This document shows positions 300 through 35,429 of a DNA stretch of 38,046 nucleotides, in pieces. The stretch spans positions 1 through 38,046 of the forward strand of contig JACRHU010000002.1 in the NCBI GenBank assembly GCA_016211995.1. Reading direction: 5' to 3'. Under the pieces are notes generated by a model. It saw only the letters and a list, made by a program, of their open reading frames with translations. It had not been told where the DNA came from and did not search any database. Numbering within the stretch: position 1 is the stretch's first letter; the number at the start of each line of letters is the position of its first letter. Position numbers and translations under genes: made by a program. Origin of the DNA: Candidatus Pacearchaeota archaeon. Lineage in GTDB: Archaea > Nanobdellota > Nanobdellia > Pacearchaeales > DTIR01.

Positions 300-2432
300 A
301 TGAAAAATAAGGTGGTTTTAGGGGTTTTTTTAGCAGTTTTCTTGTTTAGCCTAATTTCTGCTGCTTCTGCAGAAATCTTGCTTGGGCAGCCTAGCAAGAT
401 TTATATGCTTGGAAGCAATTTTGAACAACAAGTTGATATTTTAGAATCTGACTCTGCCACTGGATTGCTGCAGCTGACTCTTGTCTGTCCTTCTCAGAGT
501 GTTGTATTTTATGCTGATACAGTGAGTGTTAGTGCTAATACTCTATTTGAGCTTAAGAAAGGACTTGTTCTTACAGATGGCATTGGAGAATGCCATGTTA
601 CCTCTAGTTTTTTAAGCGAGAGTGCAAGAACTAGTAATTTTATTGTAAGTGATAATATAAAATTAGATATCACGCTGAGCGCAAAGAGCGTGAAACCTGG
701 TGAGCAGCTTGTAATTAATGGAAATGCTATTCGTGAGGATGGAATTCCTGTGAATGGATTTGCTGAAATTTCTGTTGGAGATGTTGCGAAGCAGACTATT
801 GCAGTTGTTGATGGTTCTTTTACAATTAACTTGAATATCCCTGAGAATGCAAGGCCAGATGCTTATGACATTGAAATTCTTGTTTATGAGAAATATAAAG
901 ACACTAGAACAAATAAGGCTGTTTTCCAAGATAAGATTTATGTTACAGTTGTGCCAACAAAGTTGGAACTTGCATTAAATAATGATAGTTTTATTCCTGG
1001 CTCTATTCTTACTGTCAAGGCTTTATTGTATGATCAAGCTGGAAATGAGATAAAAGATATTGTAAGGCTAGAGATATATGATTCAAGGGGGAATAATCTT
1101 GTTCAGGAGGGAATAGAAACAAGTTTAAGTAAAAATTATCAGATTCCAAATAATGCAACAGCTGGAGATTGGAAGATTTATGTGAGTATTTCTGACTTGA
1201 GGGAAGAGAGGATAATTTACATTCCAAAATATGAATCTGCGTCTGTAGAGCTTGTAAACAACAAGCTTGTGGTAACCAATACAGGAAATGTGCCTTACAA
1301 GAAAACTTTAGAAATTAAATTTAGTAGTGGTGGAACTGAAATTGATAAAACTAAAAAAGTTGTACTTGATGTGGATGATAAACAATCTTTCTTGTTAGAA
1401 GCTCCTAATGGAACATATGATGTTTCTGTTAATGCTTTGAGTGATGGAACTGAAACTATAGAGGAAGTAAAAGAGTTCAGGTCAGTGCCATTAACAGGCA
1501 GGGCAACAGCTGTTCTTGATCTTGAAGGAAGAAAAGGTTTATTCACTCAGTATCCTTTAATCTCTTTTATTGTCTTCATTATTTTGATTATATTTATTAT
1601 CTATATATCTAGACCTAAACAAGAGCTTGATTATGTTGAATCAAAAGGAGTTATAAGCAGAGGACAAGGCACCGGATATATTGTTGCAACAAGCTCCCTT
1701 CCAATACAGGCGAGAGATGCTGGAAAAAGCGAAGATGTAATAAGAAGAATTTATGACAAGTATGTTGACAAGAGCCTAGTTGAAAAGGTAGTACAGGGTT
1801 CTATTGTAGGTAATAGACAAGAGCTTAGTGTTTTATTTGTTTCATTAAAAAATCTTTCAGAAATTCAGAAAGATGATAATTTTACAGAACTGATAAATAA
1901 GTATTTCAGAATTGTTACGAATGCTGTTTATGGCAACCGCGGAGTTGTAGGGCATGTTGCTGGAAGTGATATAATTGCATTATTTAATGCTCCTAGAACT
2001 CAGGAAAATCATCAACTTGCTGCTGTTCGCGCTGCAACAAGAATTAATGAAGAACTATCAAAATTAGAAGTAGAACACGGCCTTGGAATAAATTCAGGAC
2101 AAGCAGCTGTAGGATTAAATGCTAAAGTTTTAAGATTCATGCCTACTGCAGGCCTTTCGCTTGTTGCTCAAAAACTAAAGGAAAAATCAAGAAATGAAAT
2201 ACTTGTAAGCAAGAGTATAAATGATGTTGCAAGAGATTATTTTAAAATTCAGAGATATGGTGTAGTTGATGCTGGTGTGCATGTTATTGAAGCTTTCAAA
2301 GTTGTCGGAGCAGGCGGTGCATTCACATCAGAAGAGAAAAAAGAGTCATCATTAGCTGATATGATTTCTAGAGTCAAGCTTGAGCAAGAGAAAAAAGAGG
2401 CTGAAAAAAGATTACAGAGAGGAAGTCAATAA
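300..2432 (+). CDS. Membrane-anchored surface protein with signal peptide, ~400-aa beta-rich ectodomain, one TM helix and a cytoplasmic degenerate class III nucleotidyl-cyclase-like domain
   Basis: ATG at 300. Signal-like N-terminus MKNKVVLGVFLAVFLFSLISAASA. TM helix LISFIVFIILIIFIIYI. The C-terminal LSVLFVSLKNLS...VAGSDIIALFNAP...AAVRAATRI...GINSGQAAVG resembles a cyclase homology domain, but the first metal Asp position is Ser and no clear Asn/Arg catalytic pair is seen. Confidence 0.6.
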   Translation: MKNKVVLGVFLAVFLFSLISAASAEILLGQPSKIYMLGSNFEQQVDILESDSATGLLQLTLVCPSQSVVFYADTVSVSANTLFELKKGLVLTDGIGECHVTSSFLSESARTSNFIVSDNIKLDITLSAKSVKPGEQLVINGNAIREDGIPVNGFAEISVGDVAKQTIAVVDGSFTINLNIPENARPDAYDIEILVYEKYKDTRTNKAVFQDKIYVTVVPTKLELALNNDSFIPGSILTVKALLYDQAGNEIKDIVRLEIYDSRGNNLVQEGIETSLSKNYQIPNNATAGDWKIYVSISDLREERIIYIPKYESASVELVNNKLVVTNTGNVPYKKTLEIKFSSGGTEIDKTKKVVLDVDDKQSFLLEAPNGTYDVSVNALSDGTETIEEVKEFRSVPLTGRATAVLDLEGRKGLFTQYPLISFIVFIILIIFIIYISRPKQELDYVESKGVISRGQGTGYIVATSSLPIQARDAGKSEDVIRRIYDKYVDKSLVEKVVQGSIVGNRQELSVLFVSLKNLSEIQKDDNFTELINKYFRIVTNAVYGNRGVVGHVAGSDIIALFNAPRTQENHQLAAVRAATRINEELSKLEVEHGLGINSGQAAVGLNAKVLRFMPTAGLSLVAQKLKEKSRNEILVSKSINDVARDYFKIQRYGVVDAGVHVIEAFKVVGAGGAFTSEEKKESSLADMISRVKLEQEKKEAEKRLQRGSQ

Positions 2433-8954: not shown

Positions 8955-8956
<2 letters not shown>
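8933..8956. promoter_or_regulatory. Perfect 10-bp inverted repeat between the TATA box and the start codon (operator candidate)
   Basis: ATAAGTTAAC-aata-GTTAACTTAT overlaps the ATG at 8955. A TATA-like TTTATAAAT lies at 8924-8932. Confidence 0.5.
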
Positions 8957-15621: not shown

Positions 15622-17031
15622 ATGAAAAAGTTATTTAAGATAAAAGGAATGCACTGTAATTCGTGTGAGAGATTGATTGAGATTGAATTGAAAGATAGAG
15701 TTAGCAGCATAAAAGTAAGTTATGCAAAAAATGAAGCATTGATTGATTTTGATCCTGAAAAGATAAGTGAAAAAGAAATAACTGAAAGCATTAAAAAATT
15801 AGGTTATGAAGTTATCTCACAGAATTCAAATGCTCCTGTAAAGAAAGATAGAGTCGGTTTATTTGTTTTGATAGGCGTAAGCATATTAGCCTTGTTTTTT
15901 TTATATTATCTGTTTGGCTCGAGCATTAAAATTCCTGAATTTAAGATTCCAGAGATAGGAGAAAATGTAAGTTTGGTTTTATTGTTTATTGCTGGATTGC
16001 TTGTAGGATTTCATTGTGTATCTATGTGTGGAGGCTTTGTTGTTTCATACACAGCCAAGAATGCATTAAATGGCCATAAGAGTTTGAAACAACACCTTGT
16101 TTATGGTGGTTCAAAAGTAGTTTCATATGCTATTATAGGGGGAATTTTTGGTTTAATAGGAGGAATAATTGCTTTTAGCACTAAATTGCGCGGATGGGTT
16201 GCAATTCTTGCTGGATTATTTATGATATTTTATGCATTAAGCATGTGTGGCATTGCATTTTTCAGAAGATTTCAATTTAATCCTAAATTTTTATCAAAAG
16301 TTGCTAGCAGGACACCAAAAGGACCATATGCAGGACCATTCTTTACAGGTTTGTTAAATGGATTATTCATTGCTTGCGGACCATTGCAAGCAATGTATCT
16401 TTATGCAGCAGGAACAGGAAGCTTTGTGAAAGGAGCAACAAGCTTGGCTGTTTTTGGTTTTGGAACTATTCCAGTAATGCTTGGATTCGGAAGTCTTGCT
16501 ACTGTAATAAGCCATAGCACTACAAGAAAAATTTTGAAAATTTCAGCAGTCATTGTTCTGATACTTGGATTAGTAATGTTAAACAGAGGATTAGCCTTAA
16601 CTGGAACAAATTTTGGATTAAGTTCGATAAAACCTAGCAGTAATGGAAATGTTATTAGTGGGAATATAGTAAATGGTGTTCAGGAAATAAATATGAATGT
16701 TGATGCGAGCGGTTATCATCCTAACTCTTTTGTCCTGAAAAAAGGAATTCCTGTAAAATGGAATGTGAATGTCAAAGAGCTGACAGGATGTAACAGTGAA
16801 TTAGTAGTAAATGACTACAAAATAGATGCAAGATTAAAACAAGGATTGAATGTCTTTGAATTTACTCCTGATAAAGTTGGAACAGTGAGATTCAGCTGTG
16901 GGATGGGGATGTTGCAAGGAAGTTTTATTGTTACAGAGAGTGGTGAGGCAACACAGCAACAAATTAATTCTGCTACTCCAAAATCTTCTGGAAGCTGCGG
17001 TATGGGTAGCGGATGTGGATGTGGAATGTGA
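15622..17031 (+). CDS. HMA domain, DsbD_2/TauE-like polytopic membrane domain and cupredoxin-like domain protein with a Cys/Met/Gly tail
   Basis: GMHCNSCERL; TM block GFHCVSMCGGFV; C-terminal YHPNSFVLKKGIPVKW...FSCGMGMLQG; tail GSCGMGSGCGCGM. Confidence 0.7.
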   Translation: MKKLFKIKGMHCNSCERLIEIELKDRVSSIKVSYAKNEALIDFDPEKISEKEITESIKKLGYEVISQNSNAPVKKDRVGLFVLIGVSILALFFLYYLFGSSIKIPEFKIPEIGENVSLVLLFIAGLLVGFHCVSMCGGFVVSYTAKNALNGHKSLKQHLVYGGSKVVSYAIIGGIFGLIGGIIAFSTKLRGWVAILAGLFMIFYALSMCGIAFFRRFQFNPKFLSKVASRTPKGPYAGPFFTGLLNGLFIACGPLQAMYLYAAGTGSFVKGATSLAVFGFGTIPVMLGFGSLATVISHSTTRKILKISAVIVLILGLVMLNRGLALTGTNFGLSSIKPSSNGNVISGNIVNGVQEINMNVDASGYHPNSFVLKKGIPVKWNVNVKELTGCNSELVVNDYKIDARLKQGLNVFEFTPDKVGTVRFSCGMGMLQGSFIVTESGEATQQQINSATPKSSGSCGMGSGCGCGM

Positions 17032-17075
17032 TTTAGAATAAAGAATTTTATAAAGTTGATTGGATATATTATAGA

Positions 17076-19262
17076 ATGAGAAAAGTTGATTTTAGAATAA
17101 CTGGAATGCATTGTGCTAGCTGTGCTACCTTAATAACCAATGGCTTACAAAAAGATCCTGCTGTAAAATACGCAAATGTTAATCTCACAACAGAAAAAGC
17201 AACTGTAGAGTTTGATGAGAGCAGAACAAGTGAAGCAAAAATTATTAGTATAATTCAAAGTCTAGGTTATGGTGTAGAGATTTCTTCATTGGATAAATAT
17301 AAAGAAGAGGCAAAAAGAAAGAAAAAATTAATGGATTTAAAAAAATTGGTAATTTTCAGCTTAATTTTTGCTATTCCTGCTTTTCTCATGGGAATGGTTT
17401 TTATGTGGATTGGGATAGAAATTCCTTATAAAAATTATATTCTGTTTGCATTAGCAACACCTGTACAATTTATTGTTGGTAGAAGAATATATCAAAGCGC
17501 AATTAGTGCATTAAAGCATAAAACAGCAAATATGGACAGCTTGATAGCACTTGGAACAAGCGCAGCTTATTTCTTTAGCGTTTACGTGACTTTATTTGCA
17601 CCTATGCAAGACCAATATTTTGAAGCTGCTGCAATTCTGATTACTTTTGTTATGGTTGGAAGATATCTTGAAGCTGTAGCTAAAGGAAAAACAAGTGAAG
17701 CTATAAAAAAATTAATGAACCTGTCTCCAAAAATTGCAATAGTGATAAAAAATGGAAAAGAGATTAAAATTAAAGTTGATGAGCTGATTGTAGGAGATAT
17801 TATTATTGTAAAGCCTGGAGAAAGAATTCCAGTTGATGGAATTATAATTAATGGTGAATCTGCTATTGATGAATCCATGCTTACAGGCGAAAGCATGCCT
17901 GTTGAAAAGAAAAAAGGAGATACAGTAATAGGAGCTACAATAAACAAGTATGGAAGTTTTAAGTTTAAGGCAACAAAAGTCGGAGCAAATACTACACTCT
18001 CTCAAATAATAAAGCTGATAGAGGACGCCCAAGGAAAAAAGGCTCCTATCCAAAGATTTGCAGATAAAATTTCTGCTTATTTTGTTCCTGTTGTAATAGC
18101 TATTTCTTTAATAGCTTTCTCTATATGGTATTTTGTTATAGGGATGCCTTTTTCCTTTGCTCTTATAATTGCTGTGTCTGTTCTTGTCATAGCATGCCCC
18201 TGTGCTTTAGGATTAGCTACGCCAACAGCAATAATGGTTGGAACAGGAATGGGAGCTGAAAAAGGAATTTTAATAAAAGGAGGAGATGCTTTAGAAACTG
18301 CACATAAGATAAAAGTAGTAGTTTTCGATAAAACAGGAACACTCACAAAAGGAAAACCAGAGGTTACTGATATAATTTCATTAAACAAAAAAGAAAAAGA
18401 ATTGCTAGAGATTACTGCAAGCATTGAACAGCATTCAGAGCATCCTCTTGCGCAAGCAATAGTCCAAAAAGCAAAAGATTTCAGAATAAACTTGAAAAAG
18501 ATAAGGAGCTTTAAAGCAATTCCTGGCCATGGAGTTGAAGGAATTTATGGAAAAAACAAGATTATTGTAGGAAAACCAGAATATCTTAAGAGAATACGTT
18601 CTCTAACAAAATTAGAAGAAAAAATTTCTGAGCTGGAGAATAATGGAAAAACAGTAGTTGTTACTTGTATGAATAAAAAGATTTTGGGGATAATAGCAAT
18701 AGCTGACACTCCTAGACCTGATTCAATAAGCGCTGTAAAAGTATTACAGCAAAGTGGGATATTTGTTTATATGATTACAGGAGATAATAAAAGAACAGCA
18801 AATGCAATTGCAAAACAACTTGGAATTAATCATGTACTTGCAGAAGTTTTGCCAGAAGATAAAGCAAAAAAAATAAAAGAATTGCAAAAACATGGAAAAA
18901 TTGTTGCAATGGTAGGTGATGGAATAAATGATGCTCCTGCTCTTGCGCAGGCAGATATTGGCATAGCAATTAGATCTGGCACAGATGTTGCAATGGAAAC
19001 AGGAAATATTGTTTTAATGAATAATTCAACATTAGATGTTATAAAAGCAATAAAATTAAGCAAAATGACTTTAAAAAAGATAAAACAAAATATGTTCTGG
19101 GCGTTATTTTACAATTCAATGGGAATTCCAATTGCTGCAGGATTGCTATATCCTGTTACAGGGTGGTTGCTTTCTCCAGTAATTGCAGGAGGAGCAATGG
19201 CTCTTTCATCTGTGAGTGTTGTTTTGAATACACTATTAATGAAGAGATATAAAATTAAATAA
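17076..19262 (+). CDS. copA: Copper-translocating P1B-type ATPase
   Basis: [34 protein letters not shown] and GDGINDAP. Confidence 0.92.
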
Positions 19263-19286: not shown

Positions 19287-19532
19287 TCACTCAACCTCTA
19301 TCCCAATTCTATAATATGCTCCTTCTTGTTGTGCATAAACAATCTTATAACCATAATTTTTTATGCTTTTAACAATATCGCCGCAAAAACTTTCATCAAT
19401 TATTGCCTCAAGAATCCTTTTTTTATTTTCTGATTGTATCTCCTCAATCTTTAAGATTATTTTTGTGAAATTCATAGGGCATACCTCTCCCCTCAAATCA
19501 AGAACTTCTTTTTCTTGTTTTTCTTCTGTCAT
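19287..19532 (-). CDS. tusA: TusA/SirA-family sulfurtransferase
   Basis: LDLRGEVCPMNF conserved Cys-Pro motif in an 81-aa protein. Confidence 0.7.
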   Translation of the reverse strand: MTEEKQEKEVLDLRGEVCPMNFTKIILKIEEIQSENKKRILEAIIDESFCGDIVKSIKNYGYKIVYAQQEGAYYRIGIEVE

Positions 19533-19647
19533 TTTAGTTGATAAGTTATGTTGCCTTCTATTTAAATTTCTGATAATATCGATATTCTTCTTTCAATTTA
19601 TGATAGTTATCTACTATCATTTTTATTCTTCTATCTTATTCTCTATT

Positions 19648-19875
19648 CTAAATCTGATACTCTGGAGCTGGAATTTTCCTGCCCCATTTTACGTTTTCCC
19701 ACGCCCTTTCATGATAATAATAAAGAACAAACCTAATAGCATGAAATGTCAAGGAGATTACACCTGTCTCTGCCCAATTGCCTGTAATAAAATATGTTAT
19801 AGCTCCGAGTATAATAATGCCTATTATACGCCATGTCAATGACTTCATAATGGATCTTTTTCTTGTGTCTCTCAT
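19648..19875 (-). CDS. DUF2061 small membrane protein
   Basis: SLTWRIIG...ITG...LTFHAIRFVLYYYHERAW pattern. Confidence 0.6.
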   Translation of the reverse strand: MRDTRKRSIMKSLTWRIIGIIILGAITYFITGNWAETGVISLTFHAIRFVLYYYHERAWENVKWGRKIPAPEYQI

Positions 19876-22520: not shown

Positions 22521-23282
22521 TTAGTAAAAAATCTCACCGGTTACTATTTTTTCCAAGCTGGATGTTATCAGAAATCCGTTTTCATCTATTTCTTTTATTG
22601 TAACCTGCTTTTCTTCATTTTTTAACATAGGATTTCTTACACTTACTGTTCTTCCAATTGTTGTTGACATGCTTTTCCATTTTTCAAGAATTTTTTCATA
22701 CTGCTTTTCAACTAGAAGATTATAATTCTCATCAAAATTTGAAAGAAGAGAGATAATAAAGTTATCATTGTCAATTTTTTTTCCTGTTTCAAGATGGATG
22801 GATGTTGGGTGAAGCATGAATTCTCCTTCAAACTTGTCTGTATTTGTATTTATTCCTGTGCCTATAATGTAATAGTTTCCTAATTTTTCAGTTAATATGC
22901 CTGAAATTTTTTTTCCATTAATAAGAATATCATTAGGCCATTTAATTTCTGCTTCTGAAAGATAGTTTCTAATGGCTTCACAGCTTGCAACTCCAGCCAT
23001 CAGGCTTAATATGCCCTGTTTTTTAAGTTCTATTTCTCTGAACAAGATAATTGATAAATAAACTCCTCCAAATGGGGAAAACCAGTTCCTGTTATATCTT
23101 CCTTTTCCTGCTGTTTGTTGCTCTGCTATTATTACTGTGCCGTCTGCCGTCTCTTGCTCAATAAGTTTTCTTGCATCTTCCATTGTAGAATCTGTCGTAT
23201 CTAGATAAAGAATTTCTGAACCGATGTATCTACATGGATTAATTGCAGATTTTATTAAATAATCTTTTTCTACTAGTCTCAT
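22521..23282 (-). CDS. birA: Biotin-[acetyl-CoA-carboxylase] ligase
   Basis: GKGRYNRNWFSPFGG, and KWPNDILINGKKISGIL. Confidence 0.88.
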   Translation of the reverse strand: MRLVEKDYLIKSAINPCRYIGSEILYLDTTDSTMEDARKLIEQETADGTVIIAEQQTAGKGRYNRNWFSPFGGVYLSIILFREIELKKQGILSLMAGVASCEAIRNYLSEAEIKWPNDILINGKKISGILTEKLGNYYIIGTGINTNTDKFEGEFMLHPTSIHLETGKKIDNDNFIISLLSNFDENYNLLVEKQYEKILEKWKSMSTTIGRTVSVRNPMLKNEEKQVTIKEIDENGFLITSSLEKIVTGEIFY

Positions 23283-23397
23283 TTTAATCTTTAAAATTTT
23301 AATAGTTAATGTTCAAGCCGCATGATGGCTTACAATTGTCCGAGACTATCAGGCTCGGGTTAGTATTATTTATTGATGGTTTTTAAATCATTGGGTT

Positions 23398-23958
23398 TCA
23401 TTTCAGTCCTATCAATTTACCCCCCCTGTAAATTGTTTGACCATCATCGAAATAAATTTTAGCTATTATTCCGTCCAAAGTTGAAGGAATTTCTTCTTTC
23501 TGTTTCATTATTGAGGCAATGCAAACAATTTGGTTTTTAGCTATTTTATCTCCTACCTTGATATATGGTTCTGCCCCGGGGTATGGTGCTCGAAAATAAT
23601 CGCACTCGAATGCTGCAGTGATAAAAGAATAATGTTTTTCCTCCCATTCCTCTCTTAAATTAATCATTACAGTATGCTCGATTGAGACTAAAGGAACATT
23701 GAATTGTGCAAATCTTGGAATTTTAATATTTTCTGTGAGATAATAGGGTGCTACTTCTGATATAATTCCTTTAAAATCTGATTTAATTTCTTTTTCTGTA
23801 CCAACACGAGTTATTTTATACAGCACATCACCAATATTAATCTGTTGTCCTTTTTTTACTAGAATTTTTGGATAACCTGTATGTATTGTTCTGTATTCCT
23901 TAATTCTTTTTTCTGCTCTGTATAAATTTGGCGCAGGAGGTTCTTCAGCTTGTGTCAT
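23398..23958 (-). CDS. accB: Biotin carboxyl carrier protein-like, tandem biotinyl-type domains (first one degenerate)
   Basis: The C-terminal VGDKIAKNQIVCIASIMKQKEEIPSTLDGII retains the M-K biotinylation dipeptide. The N-terminal INIGDVLYKITRVGTEKEIKSDFKGII is hammerhead-like and has no M-K. Confidence 0.7.
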   Translation of the reverse strand: MTQAEEPPAPNLYRAEKRIKEYRTIHTGYPKILVKKGQQINIGDVLYKITRVGTEKEIKSDFKGIISEVAPYYLTENIKIPRFAQFNVPLVSIEHTVMINLREEWEEKHYSFITAAFECDYFRAPYPGAEPYIKVGDKIAKNQIVCIASIMKQKEEIPSTLDGIIAKIYFDDGQTIYRGGKLIGLK

Positions 23959-23984
23959 TTTAATTTTTAATTTAATACATTTAT

Positions 23985-26045
23985 TTAATATAGAGAGATT
24001 ATTTTTTCTAGTGTTTTTTTGAGATTATGCCTATGCGCAACTAAATCTAAAACACCCCTTTTCTCAGCCTCTTCTGCAAATCTAAATTCTTTTTTAATTT
24101 CCTCTCCTATTGTTTTTTTAATAACATCCTCGCCTGCAAAACCAATCATTGCATTTTTTTCTGCTATCACAAAGTCTGCATTGCCTGCATAGCTCGCAAG
24201 AATTCCTGCCATTGTTGGATCTAATAGGACGGAAATTAAGGGTATGCCTTCTTCTTTGAGAAGAGAGCAAGCTTGACTTGAAGTTATCATTTGTGCTACA
24301 CCAATAGGGCCTTCTTCAAGCCTTATTCCGCCGCCTTTATTGAACATTATAACAGGAACAATTTTTCCTGCTGATTTGTATTCCACTGCTTTTTTTACTG
24401 CTCTCACAATTTTTTCGCTTTCTGCTGATGCAAAACTTCCTCCTCTAAAATCATTTTGTGTTAATATTGCAATTATCTCCTTTCCCCCAATTTTTGCTTT
24501 TCCAGATATTAACGCTGAACCTGTTCCTGCTTTTTTTCTTGCCTCTTCTAAAAGTTTTTCAGAACCTTCAAAGCCTATTGCATTTATTGATTCTATAGTG
24601 TAGTCAAATTCCTCGAAAGAATTTTTGTCTAATATATTCTCAATATAAAATTCCAAAGGCATCCTGAAATGATAGTCACAATTTGGACAGACACCTTGAT
24701 ATTTATGAAAAAGAGTTCTTGGGTGCATATCCTTGCAGTTTTTTTCTTGATTATTAGGGCAGCTCTCCCATTTTTTTGTTTCTTCGCTAACCCAATTTTT
24801 AAATCTTTTTGAGAATTTTTGTTGTTTTTGTGGTTTGCCTTCAGAAAATCTTTCTACTTGCCTGTATTTTTCAAGCCTTCTTTGGATTACCTCTTTTTTA
24901 TTTTTAAAGCTTTTTTCCTCTAATAAGTTTAAATTTCGGAGAATAGATTCTTTAACTTCTTCATATACAAGTTTAGGATTGCTGTGCACCCCATAAAGGG
25001 GCTCTTCTATAACCTCATCTGCTATTTTAAATTCCAAACAATCTTTTGCTGAAAACCTTAAATTTTTTGCTGCATATTCTAAGTCATCTTTGTTTGAGGG
25101 GTCTAATTTAACTCTCTCTCCTTTTTCATTTGTTTTTTTTAGGATTCCACAAGCACCTTCTGGAGAAATAACAGAAAAATAGGAGTTGCTTAGCATTAAC
25201 ATTTTGTCTGCAGCGCCTATTCCAACTGCTCCACCAGAACCTCCCTCGCCTACTACAACAGAGATTATTGGAACAGTGAGCTGGCCCATTTTTCTTATGC
25301 TCTTTGATATTTCCTGAGCTTGTATATCTGTAACTAAATCATCTACCTTAATTTTTATCTTATATGGAGACTCATTTACCTGTATTTCAACCTCTTTGTC
25401 TTCATCGCCTACAAGTGTTCTTTTTCCATCAATAGAAATAGAGACATTTCCACTCAAAGTTTCTTTAATTGGATTTGCTCCTGGTGTATCTATAAAAGTT
25501 ATTAGCGGAAGATTTAATTGTTCTGCAATTTCCATTAGTCTTTGGCTTTTTCTATAGCCTGCTGGTTTCATTACCCCGCCTTCACGGTAATGTGCATCTT
25601 CTCCAAGTATGCCTTTTTCCTGCCCCATGATTACAAACTTTCTATTTCCAAGCCTAGCTATTCCGCCAATCACAGAAGGATCAGGGCTTGTATCTTTTTC
25701 TCCTACTAATTCTGTAAAGTCATCAAAAATTGCTCTTATATAATCAGAAGTTTTTGGCCTAGCAGGATGCCTTGAAAGCTTAAATCTTTGATATGCAGAA
25801 AGATTTGAGAAAGTTTTGTTAGCGATCTCTTCTAAATAAGCTATAGGCTCAGCAGCTTGATTGATAAAGTCTGCCAGTTTACTTGGGTCTGAAGAGAGTT
25901 TATCCTTAGAGTTTATTATATCCTGGACTTTCTCTTTGTCATAAGGAACTTCTAAATAACTCAAATCTTGTACTATTCCATAAATGGTATCAAGTTTAGT
26001 CACTATCGCCTCCAAAGCAGCATATTCTGCCTTTGACAATTTCAT
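23985..26045 (-). CDS. accAD: Acetyl-CoA carboxylase carboxyltransferase, fused alpha (N-terminal) and beta (C-terminal) subunits
   Basis: AccA blocks RHPARPKTSDYI..FDDFTEL, TFIDTPGA, VVGEGGSGGA and VISPEG. AccD blocks VCPNCDYHFRMP and GGSFASAE. About 45 aa are inserted after TFIDTPGA. Confidence 0.85.
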   Translation of the reverse strand: MKLSKAEYAALEAIVTKLDTIYGIVQDLSYLEVPYDKEKVQDIINSKDKLSSDPSKLADFINQAAEPIAYLEEIANKTFSNLSAYQRFKLSRHPARPKTSDYIRAIFDDFTELVGEKDTSPDPSVIGGIARLGNRKFVIMGQEKGILGEDAHYREGGVMKPAGYRKSQRLMEIAEQLNLPLITFIDTPGANPIKETLSGNVSISIDGKRTLVGDEDKEVEIQVNESPYKIKIKVDDLVTDIQAQEISKSIRKMGQLTVPIISVVVGEGGSGGAVGIGAADKMLMLSNSYFSVISPEGACGILKKTNEKGERVKLDPSNKDDLEYAAKNLRFSAKDCLEFKIADEVIEEPLYGVHSNPKLVYEEVKESILRNLNLLEEKSFKNKKEVIQRRLEKYRQVERFSEGKPQKQQKFSKRFKNWVSEETKKWESCPNNQEKNCKDMHPRTLFHKYQGVCPNCDYHFRMPLEFYIENILDKNSFEEFDYTIESINAIGFEGSEKLLEEARKKAGTGSALISGKAKIGGKEIIAILTQNDFRGGSFASAESEKIVRAVKKAVEYKSAGKIVPVIMFNKGGGIRLEEGPIGVAQMITSSQACSLLKEEGIPLISVLLDPTMAGILASYAGNADFVIAEKNAMIGFAGEDVIKKTIGEEIKKEFRFAEEAEKRGVLDLVAHRHNLKKTLEKIISLY

Positions 26046-26293
26046 TTTTCATCTGCCATAACAGAAACAACAAACTTAAAAAGTTTTATTTTCTGCACTA
26101 TACAGGTTAAAATTAAGGATAAATGAACCAACTGCATCGCAGGGAGGAAGATTATTTGAGAACTTGCTCATTGAGTATTAAAATTTAGACTTTTTAGAAA
26201 CTCATCAAATGATTTTGCAAGTTCTGGGAATCTTTTAATCATTCTCTTTATTCTTCTTTTATATTTGGGATTTTCAAAAAATTCCTTTGTTTT

Positions 26294-26315
26294 ACCACAC
26301 ACTAAAGTGTGTGGT
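26294..26315. terminator. 9-bp stem hairpin downstream of mazF
   Basis: ACCACACAC-taaa-GTGTGTGGT, with T-rich runs nearby on both strands. Confidence 0.4.
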
Positions 26316-26343
26316 TTGTTTTTAGGGAGAGGATTTTTTAGCA

Positions 26344-26679
26344 TTAAAATATTCTAAGAATTTCTTTCTTAATCCTATCAAATGTTTTATCATTAACAAC
26401 ACCTATCTTCATTATTGCTAAGTTCTTTTCTACTGTGAAAAGTTTATCTGCTCTTACTCTGCTTGACCTTAGTAATCTGCCGGCAGATAAATCTTCTTGG
26501 TTTATTATAACTGAAAAAGGCTCTTCTTTTATTATTGTTGTTAGGGGAACCATTATGCAATCATCTGACTTTTTATTAAAAGAATCATTTGATACAACAA
26601 GAGCTGGACGAACTTTGGTTCCTTCCAAATTTGAGAAAGGAAAAGGCAATAAAACTAAATCCTTTTGTTGAACATTCAT
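26344..26679 (-). CDS. mazF: MazF/PemK-family toxin endoribonuclease
   Basis: LVLLPFPFSNLEGTKVRPALVVS... ATGA overlap with the upstream antitoxin gene. Confidence 0.85.
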   Translation of the reverse strand: MNVQQKDLVLLPFPFSNLEGTKVRPALVVSNDSFNKKSDDCIMVPLTTIIKEEPFSVIINQEDLSAGRLLRSSRVRADKLFTVEKNLAIMKIGVVNDKTFDRIKKEILRIF

Positions 26680-26930
26680 TTTAGATATCTACTCCAGATA
26701 TCATCTTTTTTATTACCCCAAATTTTTCTTAGTGATCTTTCGCTAAATTTTAACAAGTCTCTAAAATCATCTTTCGCTTTTTCCTCTGTTCTTTGTGCCT
26801 TTTCAAGCAAGAGTTTTCCATCTAGCTGAAATAGGACTAAATCGTCTCCCTTAACAATTCCTAATTTTTCTCTTATGGATTGTGGGATAGCAATCTGCCC
26901 TTTATCTGAAACTTTTACTGTCTTCATCAT
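26676..26930 (-). CDS. mazE: AbrB/MazE-type antitoxin
   Basis: VKVSDKGQIAIPQSIREKLGIVKGDDLVL SpoVT/AbrB fold. 84 aa. Confidence 0.8.
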   Translation of the reverse strand: MMKTVKVSDKGQIAIPQSIREKLGIVKGDDLVLFQLDGKLLLEKAQRTEEKAKDDFRDLLKFSERSLRKIWGNKKDDIWSRYLK

Positions 26931-26954
26931 TTTTATTTTCTCCTTTATTACTCA

Positions 26955-26974
26955 AAGTAAGAATTTTCTTACTT
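26955..26974. promoter_or_regulatory. 9-bp inverted repeat upstream of mazE (autoregulatory operator candidate)
   Basis: AAGTAAGAA-tt-TTCTTACTT lies 25-44 nt upstream of the mazE ATG. A minus-strand TTTATAA overlaps and extends past its distal end. Confidence 0.45.
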
Positions 26975-27130
26975 ATAAATCTTTTGGTTTGTTTGTTTTC
27001 TTTAGTTTTTATACCTCGAAAATATCCGCCAAGTTTTTTCCTCTTTTTGTCTCTAGCTCCTTTTGGTCTGCCTAAAGGCTTACCTTTATATCTCCGAAAG
27101 GTTTTTATTTAGAAAGAAAGTTCTCACTGA

Positions 27131-28420
27131 ATGTTCGATAAAGTGCTTATAGCAAATAGGGGGGTAATAGCAGTAAGGATAATTGAAGCTTGTAAAGAGC
27201 TGGGCATCAAGACAATAGCTGTTTATACTCCAGATGATGAAACCTCCATGCATGTTAAACTTGCTAATGATGCATTCTGCATAAGCAATTATGATGATGA
27301 AGCCGAGTATATAAGCATCTGTGAAGAAATTGAAGCAGATAAAAGAAAGTATAATATAGCAATTCATCCAGGTTATGGTTTTTTAGCAGAAAATGAAGTT
27401 CTCGGAGAAGTATGCAAATATCACAATATATCTCTTGTCGGACCTAGACCAGATGTTATAGAAAGATTGGGTAATAAATTGCAGGCAAAAGAAGGTGCAA
27501 GAAAAACTAAAGTAGAAACAGTGCCTGGAACAGGAGAGATTGAAACAGAAAAAGATGCTCTGAAACAGGCATCAAGATTAAGTTATCCTATAATGATTAA
27601 AGCTGTTGCTGGCGGCGGTGGAAGAGGAATAGAAAGAGTCAATTCAGAGAGAGAGCTTATTCCAACATATAGAAGAGTAAAAGGTCTAGCAAAAATATTA
27701 TTCAGAAATGATGCTGTTTTCTTTGAAAAAGCAGTTGATGAGTTCAGGCATATAGAAGTCCAAATAGTTGGCTATGGCAAGCAAAATGTTGTCCATTTTT
27801 ATGAAAGAGACTGCAGCATACAAAGGAGGAACCAAAAGCTAATAGAATTTTCTCCTGCAGATATTTCTGAAAGTTTACGAGAAAAATTAACTGATTCTGC
27901 ATTAAGGGTTGCTAGATATTTTGATTATACAAATGCTGGCACAGTTGAATTTATTGTAGCAGGCAATAATGTATATTTTATGGAGGTAAATACCAGAATA
28001 CAGGTAGAACATAGAGTAAGTGAAATGTTGACTGGAGTTGATTTAGCTAAACAACAGTTTGAAGTAGCTGCAAATGATAAATACTTTAAACCATTGAAAC
28101 AAAAAGACATTAATAGAAAGGGTTTTGCATTAGAATGCAGGATTTATGCAGAAGACCCTGAAAAAGATTTCTGGCCAACACCTGGAGTTGTTGAGAGAAT
28201 TGAGATTCCTACGGCTCCTTACTTAATTGTTGATACTCATCTCTATAATGGATATAAAGTTGGCTCAACATATGATGCTTTGATTGCAAATGTTATAGTT
28301 CATGGAAAAGACAAGGAAGATGCTGTTGAGAAAATGAGAAAATCCTTGCTTGAGTTGAAGATAGAAGGGGAAATTAAAACAACAATTCCTTTCCATCTTG
28401 AGAAGATAAAAGAGCTTTAG
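27131..28420 (+). CDS. accC: Biotin carboxylase
   Basis: KVLIANRGVIAVRIIEACKELGI, ATP-grasp KAVAGGGGRGI, MEVNTRIQVEH, and ECRIYAEDP. Confidence 0.9.
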   Translation: MFDKVLIANRGVIAVRIIEACKELGIKTIAVYTPDDETSMHVKLANDAFCISNYDDEAEYISICEEIEADKRKYNIAIHPGYGFLAENEVLGEVCKYHNISLVGPRPDVIERLGNKLQAKEGARKTKVETVPGTGEIETEKDALKQASRLSYPIMIKAVAGGGGRGIERVNSERELIPTYRRVKGLAKILFRNDAVFFEKAVDEFRHIEVQIVGYGKQNVVHFYERDCSIQRRNQKLIEFSPADISESLREKLTDSALRVARYFDYTNAGTVEFIVAGNNVYFMEVNTRIQVEHRVSEMLTGVDLAKQQFEVAANDKYFKPLKQKDINRKGFALECRIYAEDPEKDFWPTPGVVERIEIPTAPYLIVDTHLYNGYKVGSTYDALIANVIVHGKDKEDAVEKMRKSLLELKIEGEIKTTIPFHLEKIKEL

Positions 28421-29372: not shown

Positions 29373-30401
29373 TTAAAAAACTACTTCTGTATTGAGATAG
29401 TCTGAAAAGAGATTTCTATATTGTTCAAAAAATGGTTTTGTCATTTTTATTTTTTCTATTCCCCTTGCTGCCATCTGCGATTCTAATTTTTCTTCTGATG
29501 TATTATCACAGTTATATCTAAATCCAGAATTTTCTTGTTTTTCTTGTGTATAATCAAAAAATTCCACAATTCCTTTTGCAAAATTAGCTACTTGCTCATC
29601 AGAAGCAGGAGTTATGGATAGACCAAGTTCTACGGCAAATTTTCTAAGTTGTTTTCTATCATAACTTGCCCAGCTTGAATTCTCTCCTATGCTAACAAGA
29701 GGTATAAGCTTATATTTTGATGCTATTTCTTTTAACTTTTTTAAAAGATCATTAAGCTGACTGAAATTATTGATGGTTCTTTCAAGGGCACTAATCTTTT
29801 TTGTTACATTGGTCTGGTCTTTATCTTCTTTATGTCTATAGACTAAACCACTTTGGGAGAAAAAGTCTTCAATTGCAAAAATAGGGACTGAAAGTTTTTC
29901 TCCCCTACCAAAAGAGGCAGAAAGTATAAGATTACCCTTATTTTCTCTTTTATAAGGATTTTCATAATCAGAATCTATTTCAACATTTTTATATTTCCAG
30001 CCACGAACATCTGCAATTAAGGCTGAATCTATACCAGTTGAATTTTCGTATTCTCTTTGTCGAGCATGATATGTGCAGCCACATCTATGTACACTAGGAT
30101 CTTTTTCATCAGGCTTCATTTCCACAACTACTCTTTCTATAAAATCTGGGCTTACACTTGAGAATATTCTTGTTATTTCTTCTGCTTTCTGCGAATCTAC
30201 ATCTGAAGCTGCACTTTCTTTTTTATTTAGCGGGTTTTGAAGATATTTTTGAAAGAGCTCTTCAAAGCGCTCAGTGCCCAAGATGCTTAAGTCGCTTATA
30301 TCCACTAGGTGATTTCCAGTAAGTATAGAATCACCAATAGATTCTCTTATTACATCTTCAAGTTTATCTAATAATTCTAATTTTTTATTTTCTTTTGTCA
30401 T
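29373..30401 (-). CDS. Hypothetical protein (orphan operon, gene 2)
   Basis: 342-aa ORF with an ATGA overlap onto the upstream gene. No motif recognised. Predicted soluble, with a coiled-coil-like central segment (KKISALERTINNFSQLNDLLKKLKEI). Confidence 0.6.
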   Translation of the reverse strand: MTKENKKLELLDKLEDVIRESIGDSILTGNHLVDISDLSILGTERFEELFQKYLQNPLNKKESAASDVDSQKAEEITRIFSSVSPDFIERVVVEMKPDEKDPSVHRCGCTYHARQREYENSTGIDSALIADVRGWKYKNVEIDSDYENPYKRENKGNLILSASFGRGEKLSVPIFAIEDFFSQSGLVYRHKEDKDQTNVTKKISALERTINNFSQLNDLLKKLKEIASKYKLIPLVSIGENSSWASYDRKQLRKFAVELGLSITPASDEQVANFAKGIVEFFDYTQEKQENSGFRYNCDNTSEEKLESQMAARGIEKIKMTKPFFEQYRNLFSDYLNTEVVF

Positions 30402-31222
30402 TTTTCATTACCTTGCTTATAACCAAAACCAAATCTTTCTTTCAAATCGCGTTCCTTGCATTCTCTTTCCAAGTTTTTCTTCTTTCTTAACTTCTCTCCA
30501 GATAATTTCCTCCATTCGCTAGCTTCTTCTTTTAATTCAATTGCTAACAACTTCGTCCATTTGCCAGGAATATATCTTTCTACTTTAAGTCCTAGTGGCC
30601 CAACTATGGCCCATTGTTTGTAGAAGTCGCGCTTCACTTCGTCATGGCCTTTGCTTGCAAAATATTCACCTTTACTGCCACCAAAACCCTGAAAAGTGCC
30701 AGGAGGATATATTGGCCTGTTAAAGCAGAAATACACTTCATCAAATTGTCCCTGAAATACATCTCGTCCCTTAATTACATCTGATATCTTACATTCGATA
30801 TATAACGCACGAGGTTCAGGGAAACCTGATACAACACCCCAATCAAATTTGTGGGCGTATGATGAAAATTGTATTTCGTGTATTTTAACATTTAGTTCAA
30901 ACTTCAAATCAGAGAGGTCATAAGTCATATTTTCCTCAAAATATGGTGAACGTGGATATGTTGGACGTGGATCTGGAGCATTATTATTTATCCAAAAATG
31001 TGGGTGCATAATTGCCATAAGGTAATCATCTATATTTCCGACACGACTTGGATCCCAAACCCCTAGTCCACCCAGATCACGACGTTTACTAAGTAATCTC
31101 TCATATTTTTTAATCAGCACAAGCCCAAGAGCTGTTTCTAGGATCCTCTTATCTTCTGCTTCTTGAATTCTTTCTGCAACTCGTTTCTTAATATCTTGTG
31201 ATACCATTTTGATTTTTCTCAT
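30398..31222 (-). CDS. Hypothetical protein (orphan operon, gene 1)
   Basis: 274-aa ORF with charged helical N- and C-terminal tails and a Pro/aromatic-rich core (HPHFWINNNAPDPRPTYPRSPYF, FDWGVVSGFPEPRALYIECK). No family recognised. Confidence 0.6.
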   Translation of the reverse strand: MRKIKMVSQDIKKRVAERIQEAEDKRILETALGLVLIKKYERLLSKRRDLGGLGVWDPSRVGNIDDYLMAIMHPHFWINNNAPDPRPTYPRSPYFEENMTYDLSDLKFELNVKIHEIQFSSYAHKFDWGVVSGFPEPRALYIECKISDVIKGRDVFQGQFDEVYFCFNRPIYPPGTFQGFGGSKGEYFASKGHDEVKRDFYKQWAIVGPLGLKVERYIPGKWTKLLAIELKEEASEWRKLSGEKLRKKKNLERECKERDLKERFGFGYKQGNEK

Positions 31223-31358
31223 TATGTTTTATTTTGTGTTTAGTTTGAAGCAGTTATTTTTTAACCACTTCTTAATAGTAATCTAAATTAGAGGTATATA
31301 AATATTTGTTGTAATTAAGATAACAACATTTTTAAATCTAATTGTCTATGGTTATTTT

Positions 31359-34666: not shown

Positions 34667-35035
34667 ATGGTTTTTTGGTTGTGCATACCCTGTCTGACAT
34701 TATTGCTTTATTTTGGAATACTTAGTATTTTCATTCCAAAATATAGACTTTATATTAGAGATGCCTGGAGATGTTTTATTGACAAATTAAGGGGAAGAAA
34801 ATGCCCTGTAAGCTTTGACAAGAAAATGCATCAAGCATTTATTTTATGGCTTGCTCATAAGAACCAGGTTAAACTAGGAAGGTATTTCAGTGACAAGAAA
34901 AAATTTGATTTATGGGTTATAATTATTTTCTTAATATTCTCAGTTGTATCTACTTATTTGTTTTGGCTATTGATAAAATTCTTGTTTATCAAATCTCCTT
35001 GTGCTGGTACGAGTGGAATTTGCACTGGAACTTGA
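34667..35035 (+). CDS. Hypothetical small membrane protein
   Basis: GAGGT 8 nt upstream. Hydrophobic N- and C-terminal helices and several Cys residues. No family recognised. Confidence 0.45.
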   Translation: MVFWLCIPCLTLLLYFGILSIFIPKYRLYIRDAWRCFIDKLRGRKCPVSFDKKMHQAFILWLAHKNQVKLGRYFSDKKKFDLWVIIIFLIFSVVSTYLFWLLIKFLFIKSPCAGTSGICTGT

Positions 35036-35036
35036 A

Positions 35037-35429
35037 ATGATTCCAGAAAAGCTTTCAAAAAGAGAAAAAAAAGATTTAGAGGGATTGATGAAAGAGGTTA
35101 GCCCTAAAATTTTTAATGAAGCAGCTCATTTATATTTTGAAATGCCTCAATATTATGAGAGTAAGAGAGAAATTGTAGAAAAAAGAGCAAAAATCTTGCA
35201 TGCTGCCAGGATTGCCCAACAAACAGACTTCCCTACTAAAGATGCTTTTATGAGAGTCTATTACTGGGCGAATGCATATATCTATGATGGTGTTAATGTT
35301 TATCAGATACAAAAATGTATTGATGGACTGGATGAAGAAATTATAAAAGAATTAGAAGGAGAAGATGCTTACGAATTACTTTGTGTTCAGTGTGAAGAGC
35401 ATGATAAATGCCATTTAGAAAATCAATAA
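35037..35429 (+). CDS. Hypothetical protein with a C-terminal CxxC..C.H motif
   Basis: I prefer the ATG at 35037, one nt after the upstream stop. The track start is a GTG within the upstream gene. CVQCEEHDKCH at the C-terminus. Confidence 0.45.
   Translation: MIPEKLSKREKKDLEGLMKEVSPKIFNEAAHLYFEMPQYYESKREIVEKRAKILHAARIAQQTDFPTKDAFMRVYYWANAYIYDGVNVYQIQKCIDGLDEEIIKELEGEDAYELLCVQCEEHDKCHLENQ

Follow-up and report, generated by a model that had tools for sequence, protein, structure and literature searches.

What are two overlapping genes without recognisable domains doing beside a TrmB-type regulator gene in a Pacearchaeota genome, and do they form a system of their own? The question is raised by contig JACRHU010000002.1 of Candidatus Pacearchaeota archaeon, of which 38,046 nucleotides (the window, by which we mean this whole stretch) were analysed. 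Two minus-strand open reading frames (ORFs), gene 1 and the gene 2 that follows it, lie there next to a divergently transcribed gene for a TrmB-family regulator, and an original prediction had singled them out as a coupled two-gene operon and a candidate for an undescribed system, such as defence or stress. The operon proved to be real. Our preferred reading, which we hold on balance with considerable room for doubt, is that the two genes form a cargo operon specific to their lineage and occupy the variable slot belonging to a conserved TrmB module of this DPANN archaeon, which is Woesearchaeota/Pacearchaeota-like; ‘cargo’ denotes the genes that occupy the position upstream of TrmB.

Two coding genes outside described families

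Gene 1 and gene 2 are genuine coding genes (coordinates of all features are collected in Table 1). Their lengths are 1.5–1.8 times the maximum among 200 shuffles of the window (32% GC), in which the longest stop-free run was 186 codons and the mean 122. With a codon model trained on the confident genes of the window the in-frame log-likelihood per codon was +0.27 for gene 1 and +0.32 for gene 2, the other two frames being negative, which is comparable to the neighbouring genes (+0.23 for TrmB and +0.19 for the tRNA-thiolation gene on the other side). Both genes show GC1>GC2>GC3, no competing ORF of at least 60 aa is listed on either strand within 29373–31222, and the DNA of the pair recurs at 99.99–100% identity in two further public assemblies of the same organism. 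The gene 2 ATG (30401–30399) overlaps the gene 1 TGA (30400–30398), giving ATGA. Gene 1 is likely to start at its second ATG (31207), because the ATG there follows the conserved GAG(G/A)AAAATCAAAATG initiation region of related loci; this gives a product of 269 aa, and the public gene call P0001 uses the same start. The two minus-strand ORFs with their ATGA overlap were thus as originally described, coordinates and sequence reading being in agreement and the coding statistics supporting both. The lack of transmembrane segments was also borne out, since the maximum 19-residue Kyte–Doolittle mean did not exceed 1.0 in either product. The net charges of the products are opposite (+9, basic, for gene 1 and −9, acidic, for gene 2). 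The pair is therefore a real, compact, translationally coupled operon whose products are soluble and fall outside described families.

On this last point the original prediction, that neither protein has a recognisable family or domain, held throughout: searches of both against Pfam, NCBIfam and PHROGs gave nothing significant, PADLOC-DB 2.0 yielded no family at E values up to 1, and sequence and profile searches of the Protein Data Bank (PDB) returned only noise (E of at least 0.05). The members of the gene 2 family described below and the profiles built from them likewise gave no significant family or PDB match. AlphaFold2 (AF2) models were unusable (pLDDT 42.6 for gene 1 from the single sequence and 38.0 for gene 2 from a four-sequence alignment). 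Foldseek comparison of both models with the PDB was discarded as meaningless (best E 0.05–0.12, TM-score below 0.2).

The gene 1 product has charged helical N- and C-termini flanking a Pro/aromatic-rich core that is predicted to be beta. A word-indexed search of 5.8 billion clustered proteins returned only gene 1 itself, and in some 200 related loci neither tblastn nor phmmer produced a match. Gene 1 is a singleton ORFan (an orphan ORF), unique to this organism.

Gene 2 also matched only itself in the word-indexed search of 5.8 billion proteins, and re-searching with a profile added nothing new. Three relatives came to light when HMMER was run exhaustively against 1.84 billion representatives: P0003 (329 aa, 33% identity, E 1.5e-28), the fragment P0004 (E 1.9e-08) and P0005 (338 aa, E 7.5e-06). 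Local searches added more, in L112, L099 and L173 (L numbers denote the loci compared), the last being a 336-aa protein from the single-cell genome Nanoarchaeota archaeon SCGC AAA011-G17 and the sole match to gene 2 among 185,579 species genomes. The family comprises seven sequences, all from DPANN or environmental data, and gene 2 stays full-length in four divergent relatives. Alignments A1 and A4 show an N-terminal helical motif, G-[DN]-x-[IL]-L...L-x-[IV]...E-[RK]-[FL]-x-E, and a C-terminus of the form K/R-P-x-F-x-x-Y followed by a terminal aromatic residue. The sole Cys/His motif of the family, C-x(0,1)-C-x-Y-H, is kept in all five members that cover the region; it is the one functional lead for gene 2 and may point to metal or thiol chemistry. 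In the L083 locus the gene 2 relative is 33% identical and TrmB 70% identical to their counterparts in the window, and between L083 and L112 the ratio of non-synonymous to synonymous substitution rates (dN/dS) is about 0.7 for gene 2 and 0.23 for TrmB, on only 15 substitutions. As judged from these alignments the gene 2 family is tiny and evolving fast.

Gene 2 recurs beside TrmB without gene 1

Four gene 2 relatives have a visible upstream flank, and all four are directly divergent from a TrmB orthologue at a distance of about 105–125 bp (L083, L112, L099 and L173, with TrmB identities to the window of 70%, 69%, 82% and 70% respectively). In none of the four does gene 1 lie between the gene 2 relative and TrmB; the gene 2 relatives are monocistronic there. 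At a further locus (L085) the gene 2 relative lies after a same-strand ORF, a fragment that was tried as a relative of gene 1 and rejected as unrelated. Gene 2 relatives recur in the slot in three TrmB sub-clades, again without gene 1. Since gene 1 is missing at every gene 2–TrmB locus, we take it to be a lineage-specific addition, loss everywhere else being the less parsimonious account.

It is here that the proposal of a coupled two-gene system failed. No other genome has the two genes side by side, gene 1 being a singleton and gene 2 standing alone beside TrmB in four loci, and the co-occurrence check across related genomes that had been suggested never found gene 1 with a gene 2 homologue. 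The neighbour that did prove relevant is the divergent TrmB gene, also named in the prediction, orthologues of which adjoin the gene 2 relatives in all four loci with a flank.

A conserved regulator gene and its control DNA

The N-terminal 110 residues of TrmB match Pyrococcus furiosus TrmB (PDB 3QPH, residues 9–115) with a profile E value of 5e-07, and residues from about 115 to 242 gave no Pfam or PDB sequence match, so that a sugar-binding C-terminal domain was not detected by sequence. Orthologues were gathered from 80 metagenome loci and 36 genome loci. Orthologues with 62–82% identity were found in more than 40 loci, Woesearchaeota and Pacearchaeota metagenome-assembled genomes (MAGs) being among the sources. 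There is about one locus per MAG, and the idea that genomes carry several copies of the module was rejected for this reason.

Between the two TATA boxes that face TrmB and the cargo lies a 22-bp palindrome, TGTTGTAATTAAGATAACAACA, which is unique in the window (0.01 occurrences expected by chance) and which we presume to be the TrmB operator. Of 110 related loci, 91 have a palindrome of the type TGTTG-N6-16-CAACA at a distance of at most 130 bp upstream of TrmB; where TrmB is at least 60% identical the count is 40 of 46. The TATA-like box of TrmB lies so close to the ATG as to imply that the TrmB mRNA is leaderless. At four-fold synonymous sites window TrmB and its orthologues have an identity of about 0.5, close to saturation given the base composition. 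Purifying selection over a long time, rather than recent transfer, therefore accounts for the conservation of the intergenic DNA, and a recent horizontal spread of the module was rejected on the same ground. By alignment, the conserved unit is the TrmB gene together with about 150 bp of control DNA.

Other TrmB-related genes were seen in some loci. A second, distant TrmB paralogue (about 30–50% identity) lies near the conserved TrmB in L087 (6001–7445), L088 (431–1198 and 3794–4513) and L102 (3972–4730 and 5989–6708). In L093 (1308–1955, plus) and L103 (5319–5954, plus) an extra gene of 211–215 aa on the TrmB strand separates the operator/leader module from TrmB, and insertions therefore occur on the regulator side too.

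A conserved leader and initiation region

In the clade with TrmB at least 76% identical the cargo-side DNA is conserved through a box, ATTAAGAAGTGGTTAAA, a complementary arm, a Shine–Dalgarno (SD)-like GAGG/GGAG and the ATG, the box and the complementary arm forming a hairpin of 7–10 bp. In the DNA alignment TrmB, TATA, operator, TATA, hairpin, SD and ATG are thus all conserved, and the sequence diverges beyond the ATG. The leader hairpin is conserved in 13 loci. Pairing is kept in 83.8% of cells, as against 26–65% when the partner is slid, and one-sided UA/UG and GU/GC changes keep the pairing on the cargo strand only, which is suggestive of an RNA element. Rfam searches of the whole window and of the leader gave no match.

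Archaeal promoters have their TATA box centred about 26 nt upstream of the transcription start site (TSS). On this geometry the cargo TSS would lie at about 31272, at the base of the hairpin, and gene 1 would have a leader of about 65 nt, an exception in a mostly leaderless genome. Most first genes of the window (for example those at 8955, 3822, 14973 and 31359) have a TATA-like box 25–30 nt before the ATG, and mRNAs therefore appear to be mostly leaderless in this organism. SD-like GGAG motifs mainly precede internal operon genes of the window.

Table 1. Positions in the window of the two genes, the regulator gene and the elements between them
Feature	Position	Strand	Details
TrmB-family regulator, 242 aa	31359–32087	plus	PF01978, E 2.1e-19, residues 9–77
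TATA-like box TTTTTAAATC, putative TrmB promoter	31329–31338	plus	about 21–30 nt before TrmB ATG
Presumed TrmB operator, 22-bp palindrome	31307–31328	no strand	between two TATA boxes
TATA box TTTATATA, putative gene 1–gene 2 promoter	31295–31302	minus	GGTATATAAAT conserved across loci
Conserved box TTAACCACTTCTTAAT, part of hairpin	31261–31276	plus	exact match in window
Leader hairpin GAAGTGGTT-AAAAAAT-AACTGCTTC	31247–31271	minus	minimum free energy −10.2 kcal/mol; presumed 5′ end of cargo transcript
Putative translation-initiation region GAGAAAAATCAAAATG	31205–31220	minus	matches conserved GAGGAAAATCAAAATG / GGAGAAAAATAAAATG before first cargo gene elsewhere
Gene 1 ORF	30398–31222	minus	274 aa from first ATG, likely 269 aa from ATG 31207; ORF listing
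ATGA overlap, gene 1 stop/gene 2 start	30398–30401	minus	direct sequence reading
C107-G-C109-T-Y111-H112 codons of gene 2	30066–30083	minus	alignments A1, A4
Gene 2 ORF	29373–30401	minus	342 aa, net charge −9; ORF listing

The genes in the slot differ between loci

The cargo survey covered the DNA upstream of each TrmB match in L091–L170, L083, L086–L090 and L171–L205. Where TrmB is at least 62% identical the slot holds one to three small genes past the initiation region, often overlapping. BLAST clustering divides the 56 cargo proteins into 38 groups, and at E ≤0.001 a Pfam match was obtained for five of 35 (three Peripla_BP_6, one UPF0175 and one Ocnus) and none for the other 30. One cargo protein of another locus matches the candidate defence model PDC-S70. 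More distant slots hold isochorismatase, TPR proteins and further ORFans. The TrmB-operator-leader module is, from these comparisons, widespread in Woesearchaeota/Pacearchaeota-like contigs, with ORFan cargo that differs in almost every locus.

The 5′ ends of the cargo genes are mosaic. The first cargo proteins of L086 (at about 4153, minus) and L139 (at about 2049, minus) share their first 12 residues only, MT[RK]xITPEEDRR, and the gene 2-like protein of L099 (at about 228, minus) bears a similar N-terminal tag (..TPEER). Such ends suggest recombination junctions just inside the first ORF. Between L086 and L096 TrmB and the downstream PIN/AbrB genes are syntenic at about 84% amino-acid identity and the cargo is unrelated. 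Taken together, the tag shared by L086 and L139 and the flank control provided by L086 and L096 suggest that cargo was replaced rather than merely drifting.

In L086 (5005–5663), L096 (3101–3759) and L097 (4119–4777) the downstream genes just mentioned form a convergent pair (133 aa and 86 aa), which shares 4 bp with the 3′ end of TrmB. By eye we take them to be a PIN-type toxin and an AbrB/SpoVT-type antitoxin; their synteny with TrmB persists across differences on the cargo side.

Weighing the explanations

Several points weigh against seeing gene 1–gene 2 as cargo of a conserved module. The control with conserved flanks is a single pair of loci (L086/L096), and as synteny in DPANN genomes is poor in general, the variable slot may in part be ordinary genome shuffling. 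The functions given to the operator, the TSS and the hairpin are read from conservation and archaeal promoter geometry. Covariation in the hairpin is indistinguishable from shuffles, the counts failing to beat them because the 5′ arm is almost invariant, and the leader box could be a protein-binding site instead of an RNA element. The resemblance of the initiation regions could partly be a generic A-rich SD context. A complex of the two proteins is probable from translational coupling and charge, and both AF2 models are too poor to assign a fold or a biochemical function.

Of the other accounts, one holds that gene 2, alone or together with gene 1, is an ordinary protein of metabolism or of metal/redox chemistry within a nutrient-response regulon under TrmB, its orphan look arising from fast drift in DPANN archaea and poor sampling. 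The classical role of TrmB regulators is to govern uptake or metabolic genes next to them, as in the trehalose/maltose (TrmB/TM) locus of Thermococcales, distant orthologous slots hold Peripla_BP_6, isochorismatase and Ocnus-type proteins, the conserved C-x-C-x-Y-H suggests a metal/thiol site, and codon usage is typical of the genome. This has to be set against the failure of every enzyme-family profile, family-profile searches included, to match, a family of only seven members among about 15 billion proteins and in one genome among 185,579 species, slots that mostly hold unrelated ORFans, and a TrmB without a sequence match to the sugar-binding domain; we regard the metabolic account as unlikely. 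Still more doubtful is a dedicated two-component system, of a defence, stress or toxin–antitoxin-like kind, whose two members depend on each other to work. It would explain the ATGA coupling, the opposite charges (+9/−9) and the fast evolution of gene 2 (33% identity against 70% for TrmB, with the difference in dN/dS given above for 15 substitutions), and the single PDC-S70 and UPF0175 matches among cargo elsewhere would fit it, as would the pairing of a conserved regulator with variable cargo, which is the pattern of BrxR/CapW at defence islands (PMC9122601). Gene 1, however, occurs nowhere else and homologues of gene 2 stand alone beside TrmB in four loci, proteins of 269 and 342 aa are atypical of type II toxin–antitoxin systems, there is no PADLOC match, and the flanks are housekeeping genes and not a defence island. 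Searches with tblastn of phage and plasmid collections were empty for both proteins, and IMG/VR scans found no relatives of gene 1 or TrmB. The suggestion of a defence or stress function is weakened by the failure of the pair to recur, the PADLOC result, the housekeeping neighbours and the empty phage and plasmid searches, and we have no evidence that points to an origin of gene 1–gene 2 in defence, in a toxin–antitoxin system or in a mobile element.

Insertion of a mobile element or virus beside TrmB, with the operon as what is left of it, would account for the ORFan content, for the GC content of 0.361 in 30001–31000 (against about 0.32), for a MazF gene 2.7 kb away and for the mosaic cargo 5′ ends of other loci. 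We think it very improbable: no integrase or tRNA was found near the operon, only short chance repeats turned up when the surroundings of gene 1 were searched for signs of insertion, codon usage is host-like, a GC content of 0.36 recurs elsewhere in the window, housekeeping flanks abut the operon tightly, and the phage, plasmid and IMG/VR searches speak against it as they do against a defence system. We give as little credence to the notion that one or both ORFs are non-functional, as a decaying or spurious frame. Gene 1 has no homologue, AF2 confidence is low for both proteins and the dN/dS of the gene 2 family is about 0.7, yet the ORF lengths far beyond the shuffles, the frame-specific codon bias equal to that of confirmed genes, the lack of competing frames, the identical sequence in two further samples and the survival of full-length gene 2 in four divergent relatives all argue for function. 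What is established is that the gene 1 and gene 2 proteins belong to undescribed families; a new kind of system is not established.

A proposed scheme for the cargo operon

For gene 1–gene 2 as cargo of the TrmB module we propose the following scheme. A TrmB dimer would bind the palindrome and occlude TBP and TFB at both promoters, giving autoregulation together with repression of the cargo, until a signal sensed by its C-terminal domain, presumably not of the sugar type, relieves repression. The cargo mRNA would then start at about 31272 with a 5′-terminal hairpin that stabilises or gates the transcript. Ribosomes initiating at ATG 31207 and re-initiating at the ATGA junction would co-produce the two proteins, and the basic gene 1 protein and the acidic gene 2 protein would probably associate. 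Gene 2 would be the older, self-sufficient cargo, which may use C-x-C-x-Y-H for metal or thiol chemistry, and gene 1 a recent add-on acquired upstream of it in this lineage. The role of the pair would be accessory and rapidly evolving rather than housekeeping.

A bolder extension, which we offer tentatively and which may well prove wrong, is that the module serves as a single-copy ‘expression dock’. TrmB, its operator flanked by back-to-back TATA boxes, 5′-hairpin leader and fixed initiation region would receive unrelated ORFans by recombination at the start codon or a few codons beyond it, which would make the module a hitherto undescribed hotspot of cassette turnover with no recognisable recombinase, and the cargo, gene 1–gene 2 included, would supply lineage-specific conflict or host-interaction functions under one signal.

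Comparison with known systems

The TrmB of Thermococcales adjoins the trehalose/maltose ABC operon and represses it via a palindromic operator that overlaps the promoter. Similarly, a TrmB winged helix-turn-helix (wHTH, PF01978) here lies beside the operon that it presumably controls, a palindrome is placed at the TATA boxes, and three distant orthologous slots hold ABC-type binding proteins (the Peripla_BP_6 proteins, 3 of 35 cargo proteins). The present locus differs in that no sequence match to the sugar-binding effector domain was found, that the targets are ORFans without a transport or glycolytic domain and change by lineage while regulator, operator and leader stay fixed, and that the cargo mRNA would carry a conserved 5′ hairpin.

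An integron offers a platform in which the Pc promoter drives exchangeable promoterless cassettes. The likeness lies in a fixed promoter/leader/initiation platform followed by unrelated exchangeable small genes, with junctions at or just inside the 5′ end of the first gene. Unlike in an integron the cargo consists of one to three genes and not of arrays, and there is no recombinase among the window neighbours and no attC-like repeat around gene 1 (other loci were not systematically searched for recombinases). With type II toxin–antitoxin systems the pair shares the overlap and translational coupling of two genes and the opposite charge of their products, but its proteins are two to three times larger, have no toxin or antitoxin family match in Pfam, NCBIfam or PADLOC and are not conserved as a pair, and the autoregulator is a separate divergent TrmB gene. 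BrxR/CapW-type regulators, which co-localise with diverse defence systems (PMC9122601), resemble the module in joining a conserved DNA-binding regulator and operator to highly variable cargo downstream. The module differs from them in having a TrmB wHTH and not a WYL regulator, in its archaeal DPANN setting, in being single-copy, in its housekeeping flanks and in cargo without a known defence domain save for the one candidate-model match in another locus.

Neighbourhood and other features of the window

The flanks are as first described, with a convergent tRNA-thiolation-type gene (PF01171/PF03054; stop codons 15 bp apart) on one side and the divergent PF01978 TrmB gene on the other. The best matches of the tRNA-thiolation gene, at 53–54% identity, are in MAGs of Aenigmatarchaeota, Woesearchaeota, Nanoarchaeota and Pacearchaeota. 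As TrmB for its part is 62–81% identical to its counterparts in Woesearchaeota and Pacearchaeota MAGs, the window belongs to a DPANN archaeon that lacks close relatives among sequenced genomes. Synteny followed through this gene in 80 DPANN or archaeal loci revealed no shared neighbours and no homologues of gene 1 or gene 2. Wider neighbours are acetyl-CoA carboxylase subunits, biotin ligase, the tRNA-thiolation gene, a Prismane-family protein, an ion channel, thioredoxin and glutamate dehydrogenase (GDH). The impression of an accessory neighbourhood did not survive this survey, the neighbours being mostly housekeeping genes and the sole accessory gene that of a MazF/PemK toxin (PF02452, E 4.5e-18; 26344–26679, minus), which lies amid the carboxylase genes 2.7 kb from the operon.

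Elsewhere in the window, positions 22521–28420 carry a full acetyl-CoA/acyl-CoA carboxylase set (biotin ligase, biotin carboxyl carrier protein, a fused 686-aa ACCA + Carboxyl_trans protein and biotin carboxylase), which is noteworthy in a reduced DPANN genome. A copper-handling pair at 15622–19262 (plus), consisting of a DsbD-like/HMA/cupredoxin membrane protein and a P-type ATPase, is syntenic with L123, a 1.56-Mb Woesearchaeota contig. The 710-aa protein encoded at 300–2432 (plus) has a weak MG2 (alpha-2-macroglobulin-type) match of 28.5 bits against a cut-off of 32.8. Small ORFs without a Pfam match on record are an overlapping pair of 122 and 142 aa (34667–35429, plus) and one of 159 aa (19363–19842, plus), the latter with a weak coding signal (log-likelihood −0.01 per codon).

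Implications

DPANN archaea are obligate symbionts, and genes that cannot be annotated make up a large share of their small genomes. The TrmB-operator-leader module is a concrete feature of such genomes and apparently an unreported one, a literature search having found no paper that describes it. In it a regulator and about 150 bp of control DNA have remained constant across a divergence great enough to saturate synonymous sites, and the genes under their control have been exchanged. The module marks out ORFans that probably answer to one common signal, predicts an operator–regulator pair and offers a clue to where a lineage installs its adaptation genes. Gene 1 and gene 2 are accordingly best studied not as an obligate pair but as cargo of TrmB, of which gene 2 is the part that recurs.

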